Assembly (NCBI GenBank): GCA_030264375.1
Contig: JASCQW010000098.1
Location: 25,807,285-25,871,187 of the forward strand
Source: Carcharhinus longimanus
Lineage: Eukaryota
DNA: 63,903 nt
Reading direction: 5' to 3'
Positions within the stretch are counted from its first letter, which is position 1; every line of letters starts with the position of its first letter. The notes under the pieces are model-generated. The model ran no database searches, was not told the DNA's origin, and worked only from the letters and a program-made list of their open reading frames with translations. A program made the translations under genes and the position numbers. Positions 6,586 through 61,262 of the stretch are shown in pieces.

Positions 6586-6752
6586 CTGGTTCCATTAACT
6601 TGCATTATGAATTGAGAATACCGGATAGCCTTCCCAGAGATGAGGTGCTCAAAGCTAAATACAGTACTTCAGATAAGGTCTAATCAGATAATCAGAGCAG
6701 ATAACGACTTCCAGTCTCCTTTATCAGTGGCTAACAATGAGTCTTGGGCTAC

Positions 6753-7610
6753 AAGAACATGTAGATGGAATGGTCAAATGGGCAGATAAGTGGCAGATGG
6801 AATTTAACTCTGAGAATGTGAGATGATACACTTTGAAAGGAGTAATTTGACAAGAAAATACCCAATGAATGTAGAACACTAAGAAATTATGTGAAACAAA
6901 GAGGCCTTGGTGTGTTTGTCTACAGATCTCTGAAAGTAGAAGGGAATGTGAGTAGGGTGGTGACAAAGGCATTTGGGACATTTGCCTTTATCAATCGAGG
7001 CACGGATTACAAAAGCAGGGGAGTCATGTTGGAGTTGTACGGAACTTGCGGGGACAAAGCTGGAGTATTGTGTGCAGTTCTGCTCAACACATTATCGGAA
7101 GGATGTGATTGCACTGGAGGGGCGCAGACGAGATTCACCAGGATGCTGCATGGAATGGAAAATTTAAGTTGTGAAGAAAGGTTGCATAAGCTTGGGTTGT
7201 TTTTGTTGGAGCAGAAAAGATTGATGGCCAACCTGATTGAGGTGTATAAGATTATGAAAAACATGAACAAAGTAGATAAGGAACAGCTGCTCCCCTTAGT
7301 TGAACAGTTAGTCACAGGGGACATAGGTTCAAGGTGAGGGGCCGGAGGTTTAGGGGAAATGCGACGAAAAACCTTTTTACTCAGAGGGTGATGACGGTCT
7401 GAAATGAGCTGCCTAGGAGAGCGGTAGAGGCAGGTTGCCTCACATCCTTTAAAAAGTATCTGGATGAACACATGGCACATCATAACATTCAAAGCTATGG
7501 ACCAATTGCTGGCAGATGTGATTAGGTGGGACTTCAGATGTTTCTAATTGTTGGTGCATATTCAATAGGCTGAAGGGCCTCTTCTGCGCCGTATGGTTCT
7601 ATGATTCTAT
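6753..7610 (+). mobile_element. CR1 LINE, 3' fragment
   Basis: ORFs with LEYCVQF, YRKDVIALEG and EERLHKLGLFLLEQKRL; tail ctatgattctat. Confidence 0.9.
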
Positions 7611-24700: not shown

Positions 24701-26485
24701 GATCAAGCCTCTTGATCTGAGCATCTTTGGCTACTTGTATGCCAGTTTAACTCTAGGACCACATTGCACAACTCCCAAAATCAAGCCCAGAAGAGAGTTA
24801 ACTGCCAAAATGACATGAATTCCAAGGATTTTAAATGTGTGGCCTCAAAGCAAATACTGGTTTGCAATCTCATTGAATGCAATTACAATTAAAACTGATC
24901 AAATGCTTGTACTTATGAACACCAGTGTTGCACAGAAATCCACAAGTGTCTTTTAAACAGCATGGTATCACCTAAGATATTGCATGACTGAAAGAGCCAC
25001 TTATGAATTCAAAACACCAGTTCTCTAGAACTAGTCTTGTAAATAGTGGGTAAAGTTTTTTGATTTGACTTTTTCAAAAGTTGCATACTAATGGTCTTAC
25101 TGAACTTCAGTTATTACAAACTTGCCCACTTAATGGTACTAAACAAATACACAATTACACAAGTAGACAGTGATAGCATAGTTTTATTGTATTTAGTCAA
25201 GAGGGCATACATGTCAATGAGAACTAATGAAGTCCAAATGAAATGACCGATCAAGTAGGAATGCCCAGGTATTTCACATCTTAAGTGGAGGGAGGTGTAT
25301 TTTAATATGACAAGCCTTCCCAGCATCTTATTTCTTCAAAGTCACATGTCTACAAAAACTGATGCAGACCTACTGTATCCAATCATACCTTGTGTTAAGA
25401 CTCACAGCAATTAATGATAAAGAATTTTTGTACAAAAAGCTGTCAGCAAGGCAGTTAAATTACACAACTTGGAGTATAAAGCAAATTTTAACCCTAGTCA
25501 TCTATAAGTGTATAATTGCATTAAATGGATGAAAAGCCAGCCATTAAGATTTTGGCTCTGAATTCAGACAACCTCCAAATGTGGCCAAAAGCAAACAGTT
25601 TTACTTGAACTATTACCTTTAAGATTCATCCCAGCATGCACAATTGACAAGGGGGGTAGAAAAGGCAAAGAATGTTGCGATGCCTGGCCTTCAAAGTGGC
25701 CCAATACTGCATCAGTCAAGTTTCATTCATGTGGATTGAGTGGTGTCATTATTCACCTGTGGAATTCAAAACAAGCCAACCAGGAAGTAGGGAGGCTCAG
25801 CAAGCATGGTCATAAAGCTCAAATGAGGGAAAACTGTCATATGCATTCCTACTACTTATCAACCCAAAACAGTCACTTTGCAAGTGGAACAGGGCAACTT
25901 CACACCCCAGTTAGCATCTCAAATGCTTGCATCCAACAATAATAAATGTGCTTTGCAATTCAATTAGATTCCCTACTCAGTAATTCCATACTTGAGATGC
26001 AACTGATTGGTGATTTTGGCCTGCAGGCCAAATCACCAATTTCTCCAAATCTCTCCATCCACAAGCATAGAAAGATGAGATTGTTGCTCCAATATTGGAT
26101 CACCCAGGATAGCAGTCTGCTTGGTTAACACCAAAATACCCCTTGCTAGACAGTACATTGTGCCAGATGATACACCAAACTCCACAGTCCCATGAACCCC
26201 ACTAATTAAGAGCAGTAATGGGACCACCCACAAGTCATTCTTATCTGGCAGAGAGAGCATCAAAACAATAGCATTAATTCAAGCAGCTCCCATCACTGGG
26301 CAACAAGCTATAATCCCAAAATCAAAGACTAGGCAACTTACCTAGAGAAAATAGTCTTTAAATACCCTTCAATGAAATGTAACTGCAAACACTTTAGGTT
26401 CAGCTATTTGACACTGAAGTTGTTCTTGGTTGTCTTCTTGCTTCCAGAAGCTTGCTGCTATTTCCAACTATGCCCACCATCCTTA

Positions 26486-26545
26486 ACAGGCCGGGACAAG
26501 TGCAATACCAAGTGCATTTGTCAGCATTGCAATAAATCCCAACCT
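26486..26545 (-). ncRNA. MIR92A1: pre-miR-92a
   Basis: Mature UAUUGCACUUGUCCCGGCCUGU at 26486-26507; 5p arm AGGUUGGGAUUUAUUGCAAUGCU. Confidence 0.98.
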
Positions 26546-26607
26546 ATGCAGGACAGGGTTGCATGTAGAGAAGATACATGAATACTAGTTGTATTTTACT
26601 TCTATAG

Positions 26608-26669
26608 TCAGTTTTGCATGGATTTGCACAGCAATATTTACTAACAGCTGGATGCAAACCTGCAAAACT
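26608..26669 (-). ncRNA. MIR19B1: pre-miR-19b
   Basis: Mature UGUGCAAAUCCAUGCAAAACUGA at 26608-26630; 5p arm AGUUUUGCAGGUUUGCAUCCAGC. Confidence 0.98.
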
Positions 26670-26727
26670 AACTAGAGAAGCTTTCCACGGTTAAAATTTA
26701 TACAGCTGTAGTCTGTTAGCTAGTAGT

Positions 26728-26786
26728 ACTCAAGTGCTTATATTGCAGTAGATTACTACAACACTACCTGCACTATAAGCACTTTA
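26728..26786 (-). ncRNA. MIR20A: pre-miR-20a
   Basis: Mature UAAAGUGCUUAUAGUGCAGGUAG at 26764-26786 with a complementary 3p arm. Confidence 0.98.
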
Positions 26787-26853
26787 ATACTTCTTGAGCT
26801 TTAAGCCTCAAACAGCAAGGATTCAGACCACTTACAGCCAACCCAGTCCACCA

Positions 26854-26911
26854 TCAGTTTTGCATAGATTTGCACAACTAATTTCTTCTTGTGGTGCAAC
26901 CATGCAAAACT
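26854..26911 (-). ncRNA. MIR19A: pre-miR-19a
   Basis: Mature UGUGCAAAUCUAUGCAAAACUGA at 26854-26876 with a complementary 5p arm. Confidence 0.98.
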
Positions 26912-26981
26912 GGTCGAGAACTGCAATACTAAAGATTCAAGAAAAGAATTAGTACACCCAAGCTGATCAGAGTTACTTATG

Positions 26982-27045
26982 CCAGAAGGAGCACTTAGGG
27001 CAGTAGATTCTACTCTACTTCACTATCTGCACTAGATGCACCTTA
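26982..27045 (-). ncRNA. MIR18A: pre-miR-18a
   Basis: Mature UAAGGUGCAUCUAGUGCAGAUAG at 27023-27045; 3p arm ACUGCCCUAAGUGCUCCUUCUGG. Confidence 0.98.
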
Positions 27046-27130
27046 ACACAAGAGACTTTACTAAAGACAAAGTAGCAAGCAAAATATTCTGAAAATGTCA
27101 GGTTCAAGGAGGGGTTACTGTCAATATAAT

Positions 27131-27188
27131 GCTTGAAGTGCCTCCACTGCAGTAGATTTTAGACACTACCTGCACTGTAAGCACTTTG
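27131..27188 (-). ncRNA. MIR17: pre-miR-17
   Basis: Mature CAAAGUGCUUACAGUGCAGGUAG at 27166-27188; 3p arm ACUGCAGUGGAGGCACUUCAAGC. Confidence 0.98.
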
Positions 27189-27869
27189 ACATTACTTCTG
27201 ACCTGGGCCACAGCAGCAAATAATTCCAGGTTCTTTCAGCCATTTCACACCTGCAGAAAAACAACAGTTAGTTGGCTGCAAAACCATTACAAAAAGTATA
27301 ACTTACTTCTCAAATACATGGGCTGCACTGGAATTCATACCAACAGGAGACTGAAGTCATAGGGGTCAGCTAATTTGAATGAAGCATTCATTCACCATTT
27401 TGGAATTCAACCCATGTAGTATAAAAGCAAATTTGAGGGATTTTTGAGATTAAACAATCTCAAAGGGAATCAATAGTCAAGCCTGGCTTTTGCATCCTTA
27501 AGGAAATTACAGTACAAATTCAATATTGAACTGATATGCGAGAGATCATTCCCCCAAATTGCTCTGATGTCCTCTTTTCTACTGCATGACTAATCATGCA
27601 ACCAGTTTCACTATCAGGTGAAATCATTTTTTCCTGTATTAGATTTGCAAGTCCCATATCATCCATGCTGGTTGGACACAATTTAGCCAGTGAAACATCT
27701 GCATTTTATAATGTTTTATTGAAATGCTGGTAGTAAGCCAGGCTATGTGTAAACACTTAAGTGTTAAAGAACCACACAAGTTGATCATGTCCTTACACAA
27801 GGCCATAACACTGAATAGCACAAAATGCAGAAAGAAATTTTTTCCAATATTAGAAGGCCAATTAAAAGG

Positions 27870-56224: not shown

Positions 56225-56493
56225 TCTTCATGTCTTTCTTCACAGTAAACATAGAAGAGAAATATTCATTGAGAACTTTGCCCATCTCCTGCAGTTCCGC
56301 ACATGTGTGTCCACTTTGGATCTATTTTCTTTCTAGCTCTTTTTCCTTTAATACACTTAAAGTATCCCTTTGGATTCATCTTAATCCTCACAGCCAAAGC
56401 TACTTCATACTCCCTTTTTGCTCTTCTAATTTCCTTCTTGACTGTACTTCTGTATCACCTGTACACCTCCAGAGAATCCCTTGATTCCAGCTA
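56225..56493 (-). mobile_element. CR1 ORF2 fragment (target of the R2 insertion)
   Basis: KKEIRRAKREYEVALAVRIKMNPKGYFKCIKGK. Confidence 0.8.
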
Positions 56494-56778
56494 TTTTAAT
56501 ACACTCAATGAGTGCCTTATTCGAGTCTTTACGTCGCTCGGCGACGGTTTGGACTACCTCTGGCGAAACCACATTCAAGGGCTCGCTGATCTTAATTGAG
56601 GAACGTGAGCTGTTGTCTAAGCTAGAGATGTTATAACTAGCTAACTAGTGTCATCCCGATCTAATAGGGACCTACTGATGAGCCATTTTGTTGGTACCGA
56701 GTGCACAAGAACCCTCATAATGACGAGGGTGGAAATTTAGAGGGTTATTTATGCCAGATTAATGGGAATCCAATTACA

Positions 56779-56976
56779 GGACAATTTATTGTCGCCAATC
56801 AGCCTACCCTGCATGTTTTTGGAATGTGGGAGGAAACCGGAGTGCCTGGGGAAAACCCACGAAAACACAGGGAGAATGTGCAAACTCCCACAGACATTAA
56901 CCCAGGTCGGAATTCATTCCTGGATCTCTGTTACTGCCCAGCACACAGTGCTAACCACTGAGCTGACGTGTTGCCC
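56779..56976 (-). mobile_element. tRNA/V-domain SINE head embedded in the R2 3' UTR, same orientation
   Basis: gggcaacacg..cagtggttagcact (A box), ggaatgaattcc (degenerate B box), V core ctccggtttcctcccaca; no LINE-derived SINE tail. Confidence 0.85.
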
Positions 56977-57273
56977 ATTGACCAGTCCAGAAGTAGCACG
57001 CACTAACGGCCGTGACGCACTGGGCGCCTCTCGCATCAACACCCAAGAACCATCCAAGTATGACCTGCCGAGTGTACGCCCCTTGTTGGTTAACAAGGTG
57101 GACTGCAACACCTGTGGATGGAATTAGGTGTTAATCAATGAAATACAAATAGACAGTACACAGACAGTACAAACAAGTATCAAAGTCCACCATGTAAGTT
57201 CATATGGCCTCCATGTGGGCTATAAGCCCGGTGGTCTGACCAGTGGCCATCTTGTCCAATGGTCTCGTGCCTC

Positions 57274-60200
57274 TCACCTGTCGTTGAAGATCCCCAGTAG
57301 CTCCAATGTTAGCGACAAGGTGAGCCTTGAAATTTGTTGGGCGAATGATTGGAATCTCTTTATTCCCAGGAAGGACATGAGGCTGTTGTTCTTTTCCAGC
57401 CACTTCCCCCGGGCACCAACAACAAATCCAAAGAATTGGTGATTCAGGCACCCAGTTAGTTTTTCACCCTCTGGTCCGAGGCGTTGGTATTTTAGGCACT
57501 TTTCCTGCCACGCCGTCTCCAGACTGCCGCAATTGTCTTCGAACCGGACTGTCACATCTACCACTGCCACCTTCTGGTCTTTCTCCCTCTCGAAGACGAT
57601 GTTGGGTTTCCAGAGGGTGCCGTCCTTGGCAATCAGTCGTGATTCCAGGTAGGATGTCCAGCCGTATTTTCCGACACAGTTGCGCAGCTGTTCTAGGATC
57701 TTATTGTGGCGCTTAATCCGGCAGTTCTTTACAAACGGGCACCGTCCAGAAATGTGGCTCAGGGTTTCTAAACCTGCCTCACACCTTCGGCAGGATTTAG
57801 TAACAAAGGGATTCCCTCTTGACAGGGTCACCCTTGTCGGGTACAGATTGTATCTGAGTAGTACATTGTTTATGAGGCGATGGGATTTAAGCTGCTATGT
57901 AGCCTTCATCCAACTGTTTGAGATTTTATCATTATTGTAATAGTGTGTACCAATGCCTTGTGAGGGTAGCTGTTTCCACTCACAGAACTCCCATTCCCTC
58001 CACCCCTGCATACTTGTTTACTGGTTTCTTGTGGCCTGCCTCTTCCGCATTGAGTATGGGTAATGCGGCTCTGATCGTGTTCAACTCTGCTTCGTCACTG
58101 CTGCCCTCTTTGCTGGCATGAAGTCCTCGATCTCTCTCAATGCCCTGAGAGACCGCAGTCCTTCGATGTTCTCGCCAATGTTCTGTTCGCAGAACTGGAA
58201 AGAGGCGCGAATGACTCGGTCAGTTGAGGCAGACAGCGATTCCCATTTCCGGATCACCGCAGATGGTATTTGGATCTCCAGCTTGGGAATCCCCAGACCT
58301 CCATTCCAAACCCGTGAATAGAGGATGCTGTCTGTTGTATGGGGTGGAAGGTGCAGGAACTGCTTGACAGCATTGCAGATCAATTGGTCCAGTTTTATAA
58401 GCGTGTTCTGGGACGCTTCCGATCGGATCAAATGAAAGTATAGCCTCGGGATGACGTGGACCGTAAGCAGCTCTACTCGTTGCCTCGGCCTGAGAGCTGC
58501 TGCCTGTAAGCTGGAAATCCAGGCCTTTAGTCTCTCTTCCCACACACCTTCTTCTACGCCAGCCCATGGATCGATTCGGGCTCCCAGGTATTTCTCAGCC
58601 TCTCCTGGGGGGATGTATGCTATATCTTCCTTCCGAATCTGCCAGTTTTTGCACTGATGATATATGAAGGTCTTCCTCTTACAGGCAAAGTGGAAGCCTT
58701 TGGTCTTATTGGTGTTGACAGTCAGGCCAGTCGAGTCGCAAAAAGACTGGAGAATCTTCAGGTTACGGGTCATCCCGACGTATGAATCGCTTAGAAGTGC
58801 GATGTCATCAGCGAAAGCTAGGGCTGAGCAGTCGACTCTTGCTCCATCTAGCGTCATGCTGACACCAGATCCCGCTTCCTCGAGGCTACATAGGATCCAT
58901 GGATCCTCGAGGATCCATTGCAATGTTAAATAGTATGGGGGAGAGTGGGTCTCCCTGCTTGACACCCCTCTCAATTTTTATTGGTGCAGTCTTGGATTTG
59001 TTGCCCTCGACCACAGTTGTATTGCCAGTGTAGAGGTCCTGAATAAGCTCTACAAAGGCCTTTGGCAGCTTGGTTCTTTGCAATGATTTTATGAGTAGCT
59101 TGTGCCCCACCGAATCAAATGCTTTCGCCAGGTCCACAAAAACAACGGCCAGGTCCTTGTGATTTCTCTTAGCTCCCTTCATGATGTTTTGCAACACTGC
59201 GATGTTCTCGTTGCATCCGGGAGTGGCTGCTAAAAACCCCTTCTGCCGTGGGTTTATTTCGACTGTTTCACTCAGTCTTTTTGCCATGATCTTTGTAAAT
59301 AGGCGTAGCAGCATTGGACCAATTGTAATAGGGCACCAGTTGTCTGTTTTTTAGGCGGCCCGTATCCTCACACTTGGGTATAAGGACTGTCCGCCTCTGT
59401 TTCGTACAGTTCGGGATCTTTCTAGAGGCCAACCACAGTGTGAAGAGGCGAGATATGCGGGTGTCATACGTCTCATGGATATCACGGATGTCCTCCAACC
59501 TTTTGACCATCCGGACCCGGTGCACTTTCCTCCTTAATACCCTTGATGGCTTGGGTAACCTCTTCTGTAGTGATTGGCTTCATCAAGTCTCCGTTGTCTA
59601 TTCTCCCGCTGTATGCAGCGAATTTGTTGATGTTCGCTTTATTATTCTGGCTGGAGAGTTTCTGCCGATAGCTTGCCTCCAGTTCCGTTATGGATAATGG
59701 ACAGGTGCTCTGTGCTGGCGCGCCCATAATCTGTCGGGTCAGCTGGCGCCTGTTGTTCTTGTAGAGCAGTTGTGTAGCTCTAAAAACGGATTTTTGTCTT
59801 GCCCATCTCTTTCTGGCCCCGCTGTTAACCCCGTGCCATTCTTTCCGGTTGTCTTTTACCGATATCTTTGCCATCGGACTGTTCTTCGTCTGTCTGCCTG
59901 TCTCACCTCCCATCAGAAGGTCCGTGATACTCTCAACTATCCCCACTGCTAAGGCATGATTGTCTGCACTGTTCTTCGCCTTCAGGAGCTCCTCCGCCCT
60001 GACCAGGTGTTCGTCCATGTCCCTATGTTTAGGAACTCGGGCCGGAGGTTTCACAGTGATACTTACGTGAGGGACTGGGCTCCCGACAACTGCCTCAACT
60101 GGTTCCTGTTCTTGCTCGGAATCCAGCTGTGCCTCCACACCCTCCTGTGGTGCAGTTTTGCGTGCCATTGCAAGCTGCCTGCGCTTGTCTGAGATTTGCT

Positions 60201-60658
60201 TGGCCGTTTTGGATGTTAAAATACTACCGATCTCTTTATTAATGAACCAGGCACCAGCAAATCTCTTTTCAAGCTCTTCGAGGAGTGATTCCTCCTCCTC
60301 GGACCAAACGCTTTTTTGTCTACCCCGTTTGGTGGTGGTGGTTTTGGGCAGTGCTTTCTTCGCGCGTTTTTCATTGCGAAGAACCGGATGACGGTGTCTC
60401 ACATGTTGGCTGAGCCCACTCTATTGTGAAGGACAATTCACAAGCACTGCACTGGTATTGCCCGATTGTCACGGCTCGACCCTCACCCTGACATTTCGGG
60501 TAGTGGCAGGCAATAGAGTGGAACTCCCCAGACTTACCGCATCGAGAACATTTGGTCTTAATGTTCTTTGTCTTATGCACTGTTTTGAGGTGGTCTCTAA
60601 ACGCACCGACCGTGGGGAGTATGGTATTACAGGGCTTGCAATACAACGCATCAGTGGG
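57274..60658 (-). pseudogene. R2 ORF (several frameshifts, at least one stop)
   Basis: CKPC..H..H, CSRC..H..C and CSAC..H..H fingers; WSEEE..KTAKQISDKRR (Myb); APGPDG, VDLAKAFDSV, GVKQGDPLSPILFN, AFADD, KYLG; CRRC..ETLSHI..C, RHN, KPNIV, VDVTV, K..KY. Confidence 0.93.
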
Positions 60659-61262
60659 NNNNNNNNNNNNNNNNNNNNNNNNNNNNNNNNNNNNNNNNNN
60701 NNNNNNNNNNNNNNNNNNNNNNNNNNNNNNNNNNNNNNNNNNNNNNNNNNNNNNNNNNAGCAAACTATCAGATTAACAAGCAGTGCAAAATTCCAAGGTG
60801 GCCTGAATCTGGCCCTTCCCTCATTGGCCTTTGAAAGTCCTGCTTTGAGAGTCTGCAATGGATATATCATAAAGGGGTGATAGATTGATGTTGAGAAGCA
60901 AAGTCTCACTATGCATCTATTATTGTTTCATTCAATAACTTAGTGCCTGTATACTTCTCTCCCAATGTGGCCTCCAGATTAATCCCAGGAGGTAATGTTT
61001 AGGCCTTATAATTGTTAGGTTGTGGGGGATGCAACGTACTACCACAAATATAGCGATCATCTTGAGAGTGTAATGCAGAGATCCCCCAAGGAATCTAGAC
61101 AACAAAATCTCTAAATGTGGTTGAAAGCTCTTTGACCTCATTTGGTGAGGTGAAAAAAGGGGGTCTGAAGACATGTGTGAAGGGTCATCCCATGTCTCTT
61201 AGCAGTCATCCTATTCTGCCTAGGAAGCCCCAAAGACAGCAATGTTACAGAATAATAATAGT

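Follow-up and report, generated by a model that had tools for sequence, protein, structure and literature searches.

We found, in the last 282 nt of the 3' UTR of an R2 element from the shark Carcharhinus longimanus, five exact antisense matches of at least 10 nt to the rDNA lying downstream of the R2 insertion site, with targets at +80, +668, +675, +721 and +1143 from that site. Shuffled sequences gave a mean of 0.23 such antisense matches, none of 2000 shuffles reaching five, and the same 282 nt contained no match of at least 10 nt in the sense orientation and none to the 1.2 kb upstream of the site. No other tile among the 226 of the window (the whole stretch of 63,903 nucleotides that was analysed) held more than two antisense matches. 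We give an even chance to the reading that the five or six blocks found in the last 225 nt are candidate cis duplexes: in copies inserted in the rDNA they would pair with the read-through tail of the element's own transcript, sequestering the orphan 28S half and shielding the RNA 3' end.

A dead R2 copy and its relatives in the genome

The window is vertebrate DNA, with a six-member microRNA cluster of the miR-17/19/92 type on the minus strand (26477-27198; Rfam search), and the features of the R2 copy are collected in Table 1. The 5' part of this copy is missing, with an N gap above 60660, and its remnants comprise three N-terminal zinc fingers, a Myb domain, a reverse transcriptase (RT), a CCHC motif and a restriction-like endonuclease (RLE), the ORF ending in a stop codon at 57274-57276. 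Pfam scored RVT_1 with E 1.3e-07, zf-RVT with E 0.007 (below cut-off) and Myb weakly, with E 0.07; the three C/H zinc-finger motifs, spread over two frames, and the endonuclease-type motif in the C-terminal translation were recognised by eye. Frameshifts and stops leave no single intact ORF in the window copy, which is a dead member of its family. It lies outside the rDNA, in LINE-like surroundings that we take to be CR1, and its 28S-like flank measures just 4 nt, so that it is unable to form a cis duplex itself. The SINE-like insert within its 3' UTR is presumably a V-SINE, and the terminal core constitutes a putative protein-binding end.

Table 1. Features of the R2 copy and its surroundings (positions in the window)
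Feature	Position	Strand	Basis or remark
R2 copy, lineage A, dispersed and broken	56494-60660	minus	protein domains; 3'-end matches in own genome
ORF remnants with frameshifts and stops	57274..60660	minus	Pfam matches and translations by eye
3' UTR, 780 nt	56494..57273	minus	
SINE-like insert within 3' UTR	56776..56960 (bounds approximate)	not assigned	present in most full-length copies
Block E, antisense to +1126..+1166, continuing past the end of mature 28S (+1141) into the 3' ETS	56680..56715	minus	
Block D, 11 bp antisense to 28S +721..+731	56671..56681	minus	
Block C, 10 bp antisense to 28S +668..+677	56661..56670	minus	weakly preserved among other copies
Block F, antisense to 28S about +1116..+1124, 7-10 bp depending on copy	56651..56657	minus	
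Block B, 13 bp and one G.U, antisense to 28S +674..+687 (loosely +669..+694)	56599..56612	minus	
Block A, antisense to 28S +70..+102	56554..56585	minus	
Terminal core, ~60 nt, hairpins, without blocks	56494..56553	minus	similar end in a published shark R2
4-nt flank identical to 28S +1..+4, in LINE-like host DNA	56490..56493	minus	off-target insertion

The shark's own genome gave 40 scored matches to the 3' end of the R2 copy, and the last base of the element, 56494, is an end common to 27 of 30 genomic places. Three copies (L006, L132, L135) show upstream 28S, then R2, then 28S from +1, and in two others (L032, L134) the R2 end is followed directly by 28S from +1. All five sit, within dispersed rDNA scraps, where R2 canonically inserts in 28S, which identifies the family as a true R2; among the copies found in the assembly, none lay within a whole rDNA unit. 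The original prediction had assumed an R2 transcribed together with the rRNA; in the window copy, lying outside the rDNA, no cis duplex can arise. Nine of the 27 dispersed copies with an intact 3' end (L002, L003, L005, L009, L013, two copies in L020/L024, L023 and L025) share a single homologous insertion site, within a LINE ORF, a recurrent secondary target used across different R2 and host subfamilies; we assume that this LINE is CR1.

Four of the same 27 copies carry 23-29 nt of 28S. These tails were rejected as proof of read-through, because L006, L131, L132 and L135 also carry upstream 28S and because uninserted 28S scraps stop at the same place, +24..+29. The 28S scraps around the R2 site (L031, L036, L037, L006, L131-L133, L135), R2-bearing or not, end at +24..+38, and the ends of dispersed scraps fall in or just past a hairpin; the search pattern biases uninserted scraps toward ends at +23 or beyond. 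A single locus, L032:1439-1575, joins ~50 nt of R2 end to 85 nt of 28S with no upstream 28S and is a possible retrocopy of read-through RNA. Four contig sets aligned to the UTR repeated the variants known from the assembly copies and contributed one loose end of 11 letters leading into 28S; contigs cannot show RNA ends. Two 5.8S matches together with 500 N in an rDNA contig (L142:4059-4212 and 6639-6792) are probably an assembly artefact.

Antisense blocks and their targets

Positions in 28S refer to the genome's own 28S (L033), located by pattern scan, with the R2 site between 1500 and 1501. The original prediction concerned a single antisense segment, block A, proposed to form an 11+6 bp duplex with 28S. 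The plus strand reads as predicted there, the distances to the element end (61-92 nt) agree, and the segment pairs with the shark's own 28S over +70..+98 and more loosely to +102. Both helices are found in this 28S, 11 bp at +80..+90 and 6 bp at +93..+98, flanked by 3 bp (+76..+78) and by 4 bp with a G.U (+70..+74), and the duplex energy is -39.0 kcal/mol with the pairing extended loosely to +102. Scored against +1..+200 the segment reached 32, and none of 1000 shuffles (mean 17.1, maximum 30) was at or above this value. Its target presumably lies near the R1 site. The segment is therefore real, but as the only one of its kind it was understated, given the four further exact antisense matches of at least 10 nt, among them that of block E, which scores best of all the blocks. 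In other copies block E reaches up to 20 perfect bp. Block F alone is too short for significance; its target adjoins that of block E.

Against 10 kb of upstream rDNA, in which 18S, 5.8S and the 5' part of 28S are included, 3 matches were obtained for the window copy, approximately the number expected by chance. For 21 near-full copies (of 33 aligned rows), antisense matches of at least 11 nt numbered 52 in the 1.2 kb downstream and 7 in the 10 kb upstream, and sense matches 0 and 9, respectively, these being counts from related and not independent copies. By Rfam the mature 28S ends at +1141, where several dispersed 28S pseudogenes also stop, and the pairing of block E continues over +1142..+1164, some 23 nt of the 3' ETS; its target is thus precursor RNA, since the 3' ETS exists only there. 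Two-strand folding gave gains of -14.2, -21.7 and -39.6 kcal/mol for three target regions and of -1.3 and -5.1 kcal/mol for two controls. The cis duplex originally proposed for a read-through transcript gains support from targets that are downstream only, one of them in the 3' ETS, from these folds, which favour pairing, and from the RNA-level changes in the hairpin of a relative, L048, described below.

The same targets bear on whether the blocks could instead pair in trans with nascent pre-rRNA from intact, active rDNA, either tethering the R2 particle in the nucleolus near open targets or recruiting ribosomes to an uncapped RNA. A target in the 3' ETS, present only on nascent or unprocessed transcripts, is compatible with this, several short guides to helices far apart are reminiscent of chaperone snoRNAs like snR190 (PMC8536666), and pairing exclusively in cis would bury the primer-pairing bases of L048. 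For a tether, however, 18S, 5.8S or the 5' part of 28S would do equally well, and matches to the 10 kb upstream are at chance; moreover, avian donors without blocks insert as well or better (PMC12180492, PMC12222951). On balance we judge pairing in trans to be unlikely. More improbable still is that the blocks serve as RNA guides to DNA, which in target-primed reverse transcription (TPRT) would pair with top-strand sequence downstream of the nick, as the original prediction had also suggested. Any block antisense to 28S is by its nature complementary to the top strand, and block A falls within 100 bp of the nick, but the targets from +670 to +1166 are far from it (up to 1.16 kb), the family also inserts at sites without such targets downstream, and avian UTRs of 98 or 67-68 nt (Gf-98, Gf-68 and a 67-nt UTR), from which the avian blocks are absent, allow both TPRT and insertion (PMC12180492, PMC12222951).

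As regards the structure of the targets, the Rfam structure line pairs +47..+57 with a strand upstream of the R2 site, and the partner of +62..+79 lies outside the stretch aligned, presumably also upstream of the site. Both +47..+57 and +62..+79 would then be left without these partners. Blocks B-D are directed to a helix cluster and a long-range strand, which we take to be the peptidyl-transferase domain and its root. No Rfam family of box C/D or H/ACA snoRNAs matched here at gathering scores. A hammerhead ribozyme on the plus strand was considered and rejected, as Rfam gave no match and inspection by eye found stems I and III unclosed; both core-like words coincide with the 28S matches that belong to blocks A and D.

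Variation among copies was assessed in 17 of 33 aligned rows, counting variants common to at least 3 of the 17. Shared variants comprised 6 wobble-keeping and 10 pair-breaking transitions and 11 transversions, the blocks were no better conserved than the spacers (23/104 vs 31/118 variable columns), and the +83 pair is broken in 12 of 17 rows. An older subfamily (L030, L034) retains block A only. Judged from these alignments, the lack of wobble bias and of extra block conservation within the window's family would count against function, and is compatible with the blocks being neutral, decaying relics of snap-back or template-switch captures of downstream rDNA. Blocks also turn over between subfamilies, most of the junction clusters described below have none, and snap-back copying of nearby rDNA occurs at 5' junctions in PRINT (PMC11371274); a snap-back origin would favour downstream-only targets as well, a point against the functional reading. 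On the other hand, blocks persist as islands amid variable spacers in passerines, parrots and a kingfisher, and (by eye) in three sharks, two related junctions, L053 and L054, keep both blocks in diverged UTRs, and the changes in L048 are one-sided. Neutral relics are the foremost of the alternatives, and we still consider them unlikely.

About 180 nt from its end, the older-subfamily copy L030 matches 28S near +717 in the sense orientation over 14 nt; with respect to this place younger copies have antisense block D farther upstream. A second R2 family is represented by a single match in the assembly (L040:1237-1882), with a UTR resembling those of published killifish-type R2s; it has a block of its own to +48..+98 (p 0.03).

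Antisense blocks in other R2 elements

We lean slightly towards the view that many R2 lineages, in sharks, birds, bony fish, moths and other invertebrates, have repeatedly gained an antisense-guide 3' UTR module that would disarm the dead 28S half and set the template 3' end, a 3' counterpart of the 5' ribozyme; full-length avian insertion UTRs carry blocks against 28S that is shared across vertebrates.

R2-28S junctions were sought by scanning for 28S +1..+27 after non-28S letters, which yielded 77 metagenome loci; 5 loci (28S duplications or near-empty junctions) and 3 that were too short were dropped, and 69 loci in 44 clusters were kept, 31 with an R2 protein match. Exact antisense matches of at least 12 nt to downstream 28S occurred in 6 of the 44 clusters, with control values of 2 (sense), 1 (reverse), 0 (complement) and 0 (upstream 28S), and of 0/34 for ORF controls. 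With G.U allowed, 12 clusters matched +1..+110 at p<=0.05, vs 3-4 in three controls, and the other 32 of 44 had no match there even at this threshold. This bin is the only one of 21 that stands out, with 7/44 clusters at p<=0.02 (0-4 in the other 20 bins). Because L053 and L054 are relatives, the seven hits correspond to six lineages, and two of the seven (L082, L111) overlap a palindromic hairpin. Sense matches were also enriched near the junction (5/16, p 0.015). Genome contigs supplied further junctions, 1 of 6 scored; L047 and L049 match the reference 28S, and since their own flanks leave 28S at about +40 they were scored against the reference only. In L092 a strong sense match to 28S +1..+110 lies inside the last 350 nt (z 10.6). 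Animal R2-28S junctions in a bacterial endosymbiont genome bin (L136, L138, L139, L141) are host contamination.

Both blocks are retained in L053 and L054 although their UTRs have otherwise diverged. In L048, an inverted copy of 28S occupies the last 100 nt before the junction, UTR -22..-96 pairing with +1..+75 in a 75-nt hairpin. The changes in it are 10 A-to-G, 1 C-to-T and 3 transversions, that is, 11 wobble-keeping and 0 pair-breaking transitions (p 1.6e-4), and the block matches a host-specific base at +59. The hairpin covers +1..+5, so it would compete with primer pairing. Pooled over L048, L053 and L054, A-to-G changes avoid a 5' G (Fisher p 0.027). Avoidance of a 5' G is the preference of double-strand RNA editing. 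Whether wobble selection or double-stranded RNA editing acted in L048, either would imply that the duplex formed as RNA, and L048 is the cleanest system for testing the antisense-block model. Such a hairpin also raises the idea that the duplexes are substrates of RNase III, Dicer or editing enzymes, the cut in the tail making the template end or yielding small RNAs against inserted units. The 75-nt hairpin is long enough for this and its changes are editing-like, but the window blocks measure 10-35 bp and are scattered, and cutting both strands would destroy the UTR. Nor are 28S tails of 23-41 nt proof of a cut site, four such copies having upstream 28S and uninserted scraps ending alike. We hold this explanation to be very unlikely. 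As to whether such complementarity recurs, with covariation, in other R2 3' UTRs, a check proposed with the original prediction, 7 of 44 junction clusters match +1..+110 and L048 has pairing-keeping changes (11 vs 0), whereas the window's family shows 6 vs 10 and most R2s show no block.

Published R2 3' UTRs in Table S2 of PMC13188248, which covers 330 R2s and whose cells hold up to 400 characters as available, were compared by eye. Block A has homologs in two other sharks, with different substitutions: Stegostoma preserves 7+5+7 bp of it, and in the UTR of Chiloscyllium punctatum, compared with the L033 28S, 11 nt match +94..+104 perfectly, 20 nt match +74..+93 save for one wobble and one mismatch, and 15/16 match +636..+651. 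Degenerate matches of B and D were seen in Squalus, and Callorhinchus has a 10-nt match near +51..+60. In Agelaius, 17 perfect nt are directed to +60..+76 and 15 to +555..+569; in Helicoverpa, 15 bp to +52..+66. Gambusia and Simpsonichthys have the UTR type of L040 and retain differing parts of +48..+70. The GeFo UTR used in PRINT carries two blocks, also identified by eye, one of 12 nt to +58..+69 and the other of 11 nt near +560. Counted over Table S2, a 9-mer antisense to +61..+69 occurs at least 17 times vs 0 for its reverse, and a 10-mer antisense to +559..+568 at least 24 times vs 0; among the matches listed, bird 3' UTRs account for 4/5 and 8/8, respectively. Within the same cells of up to 400 characters, a 9-mer antisense to +52..+60 showed no excess (2 vs 2), and no match was obtained for any of three motifs particular to blocks A, B and D.

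Proposed mechanism and comparison with known systems

We infer a function for the antisense module as follows. Once its 5' end had self-cleaved, an R2 transcript would still be followed by as much as 1141 nt of 28S, plus ETS, and the blocks could pair in cis with this trailing rRNA, taking over strands whose upstream partners are lost. Root helices for a dead pre-60S would thereby be broken, potentially preventing both particle assembly and its surveillance, and the duplexes may act as roadblocks at which 3'-5' trimming stalls. Two functions named in the original prediction, 3'-end processing and a block on folding of the interrupted 28S, would both fall within this reading. In the window's family, pairing of block A would leave +1..+69 looped out and free for primer pairing. 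The blocks may have originated as snap-back or template-switch copies of downstream rDNA, later eroded to short islands. Pairing in cis fits the observation that avian UTRs trimmed below the blocks work with 4-5-nt tails (PMC12180492, PMC12222951), and, compared on tail tolerance alone, it fits medaka R2, where a native 100-nt tail is tolerated and a vector tail is not (PMC6530143, PMC6795142).

The R2 element is of a known kind, and the antisense module appears undescribed. The available text of the R2 literature consulted (PMC13188248, PMC12222951, PMC12203849, PMC11371274, PMC12180492, PMC11194090, PMC5035012) contains no report of antisense blocks to downstream rRNA, and an earlier mention is possible, for example in UTR alignment figures, supplements or subscription papers. 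The handling of the R2 RNA 3' end is stated to be open in PMC11194090 and PMC12222951. Mutations and compensating changes can be placed at exact positions in the blocks, which also predict the locations of native ends and crosslinks; the module recurs across lineages and is cheap to test. If the reading is true, it would account for the conservation of parts of avian UTRs that engineered templates with short tails can do without, and the blocks of the GeFo UTR, which could pair with host rRNA, would be relevant to PRINT template design.

With lineage A R2s (R2Tg, GeFo and the shark R2s of PMC13188248) the element shares three zinc fingers, Myb, RT, RLE and, in family copies, the canonical 28S site, and the end of the window copy is like the terminal structured core of a published shark R2; unlike them, the window copy is broken and off-target. 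The available literature on this lineage treats the 3' UTR as a protein-binding structure and makes no mention there of antisense blocks to downstream rRNA. The fish R2s of Kojima 2016 (PMC5035012) likewise have rRNA-derived sequence in the 3' UTR that was proposed to base-pair: it corresponds to the 110-130 bp of upstream 28S whose place the element takes, and its suggested partner is the 28S gene. The available text implies that this sequence is sense and upstream, whereas the window copy has several blocks, all antisense to downstream sequence and extending as far as the 3' ETS; a sense copy of upstream 28S of that type was not found here, with one 10-nt sense match in the 10 kb upstream and none downstream. 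The chaperones of the snR190 type (PMC8536666) resemble the module in their short antisense pairing to large-subunit pre-rRNA, which affects folding of the peptidyl-transferase region. Unlike them, the block module lies in a transposon mRNA, has no snoRNA match and is predicted to hinder assembly. Finally, the 3' homology tails of R2 templates, R4-R100 (PMC11371274, PMC6530143, PMC12222951), also concern the 28S that follows R2 in the transcript, and the values for zebrafish are 98% for a 4-nt tail by itself, 12% when vector follows it and 96% when vector follows a native tail of 100 nt (PMC6530143). Tail pairing joins tail RNA to primer DNA, whereas the antisense blocks would pair UTR RNA with tail RNA.
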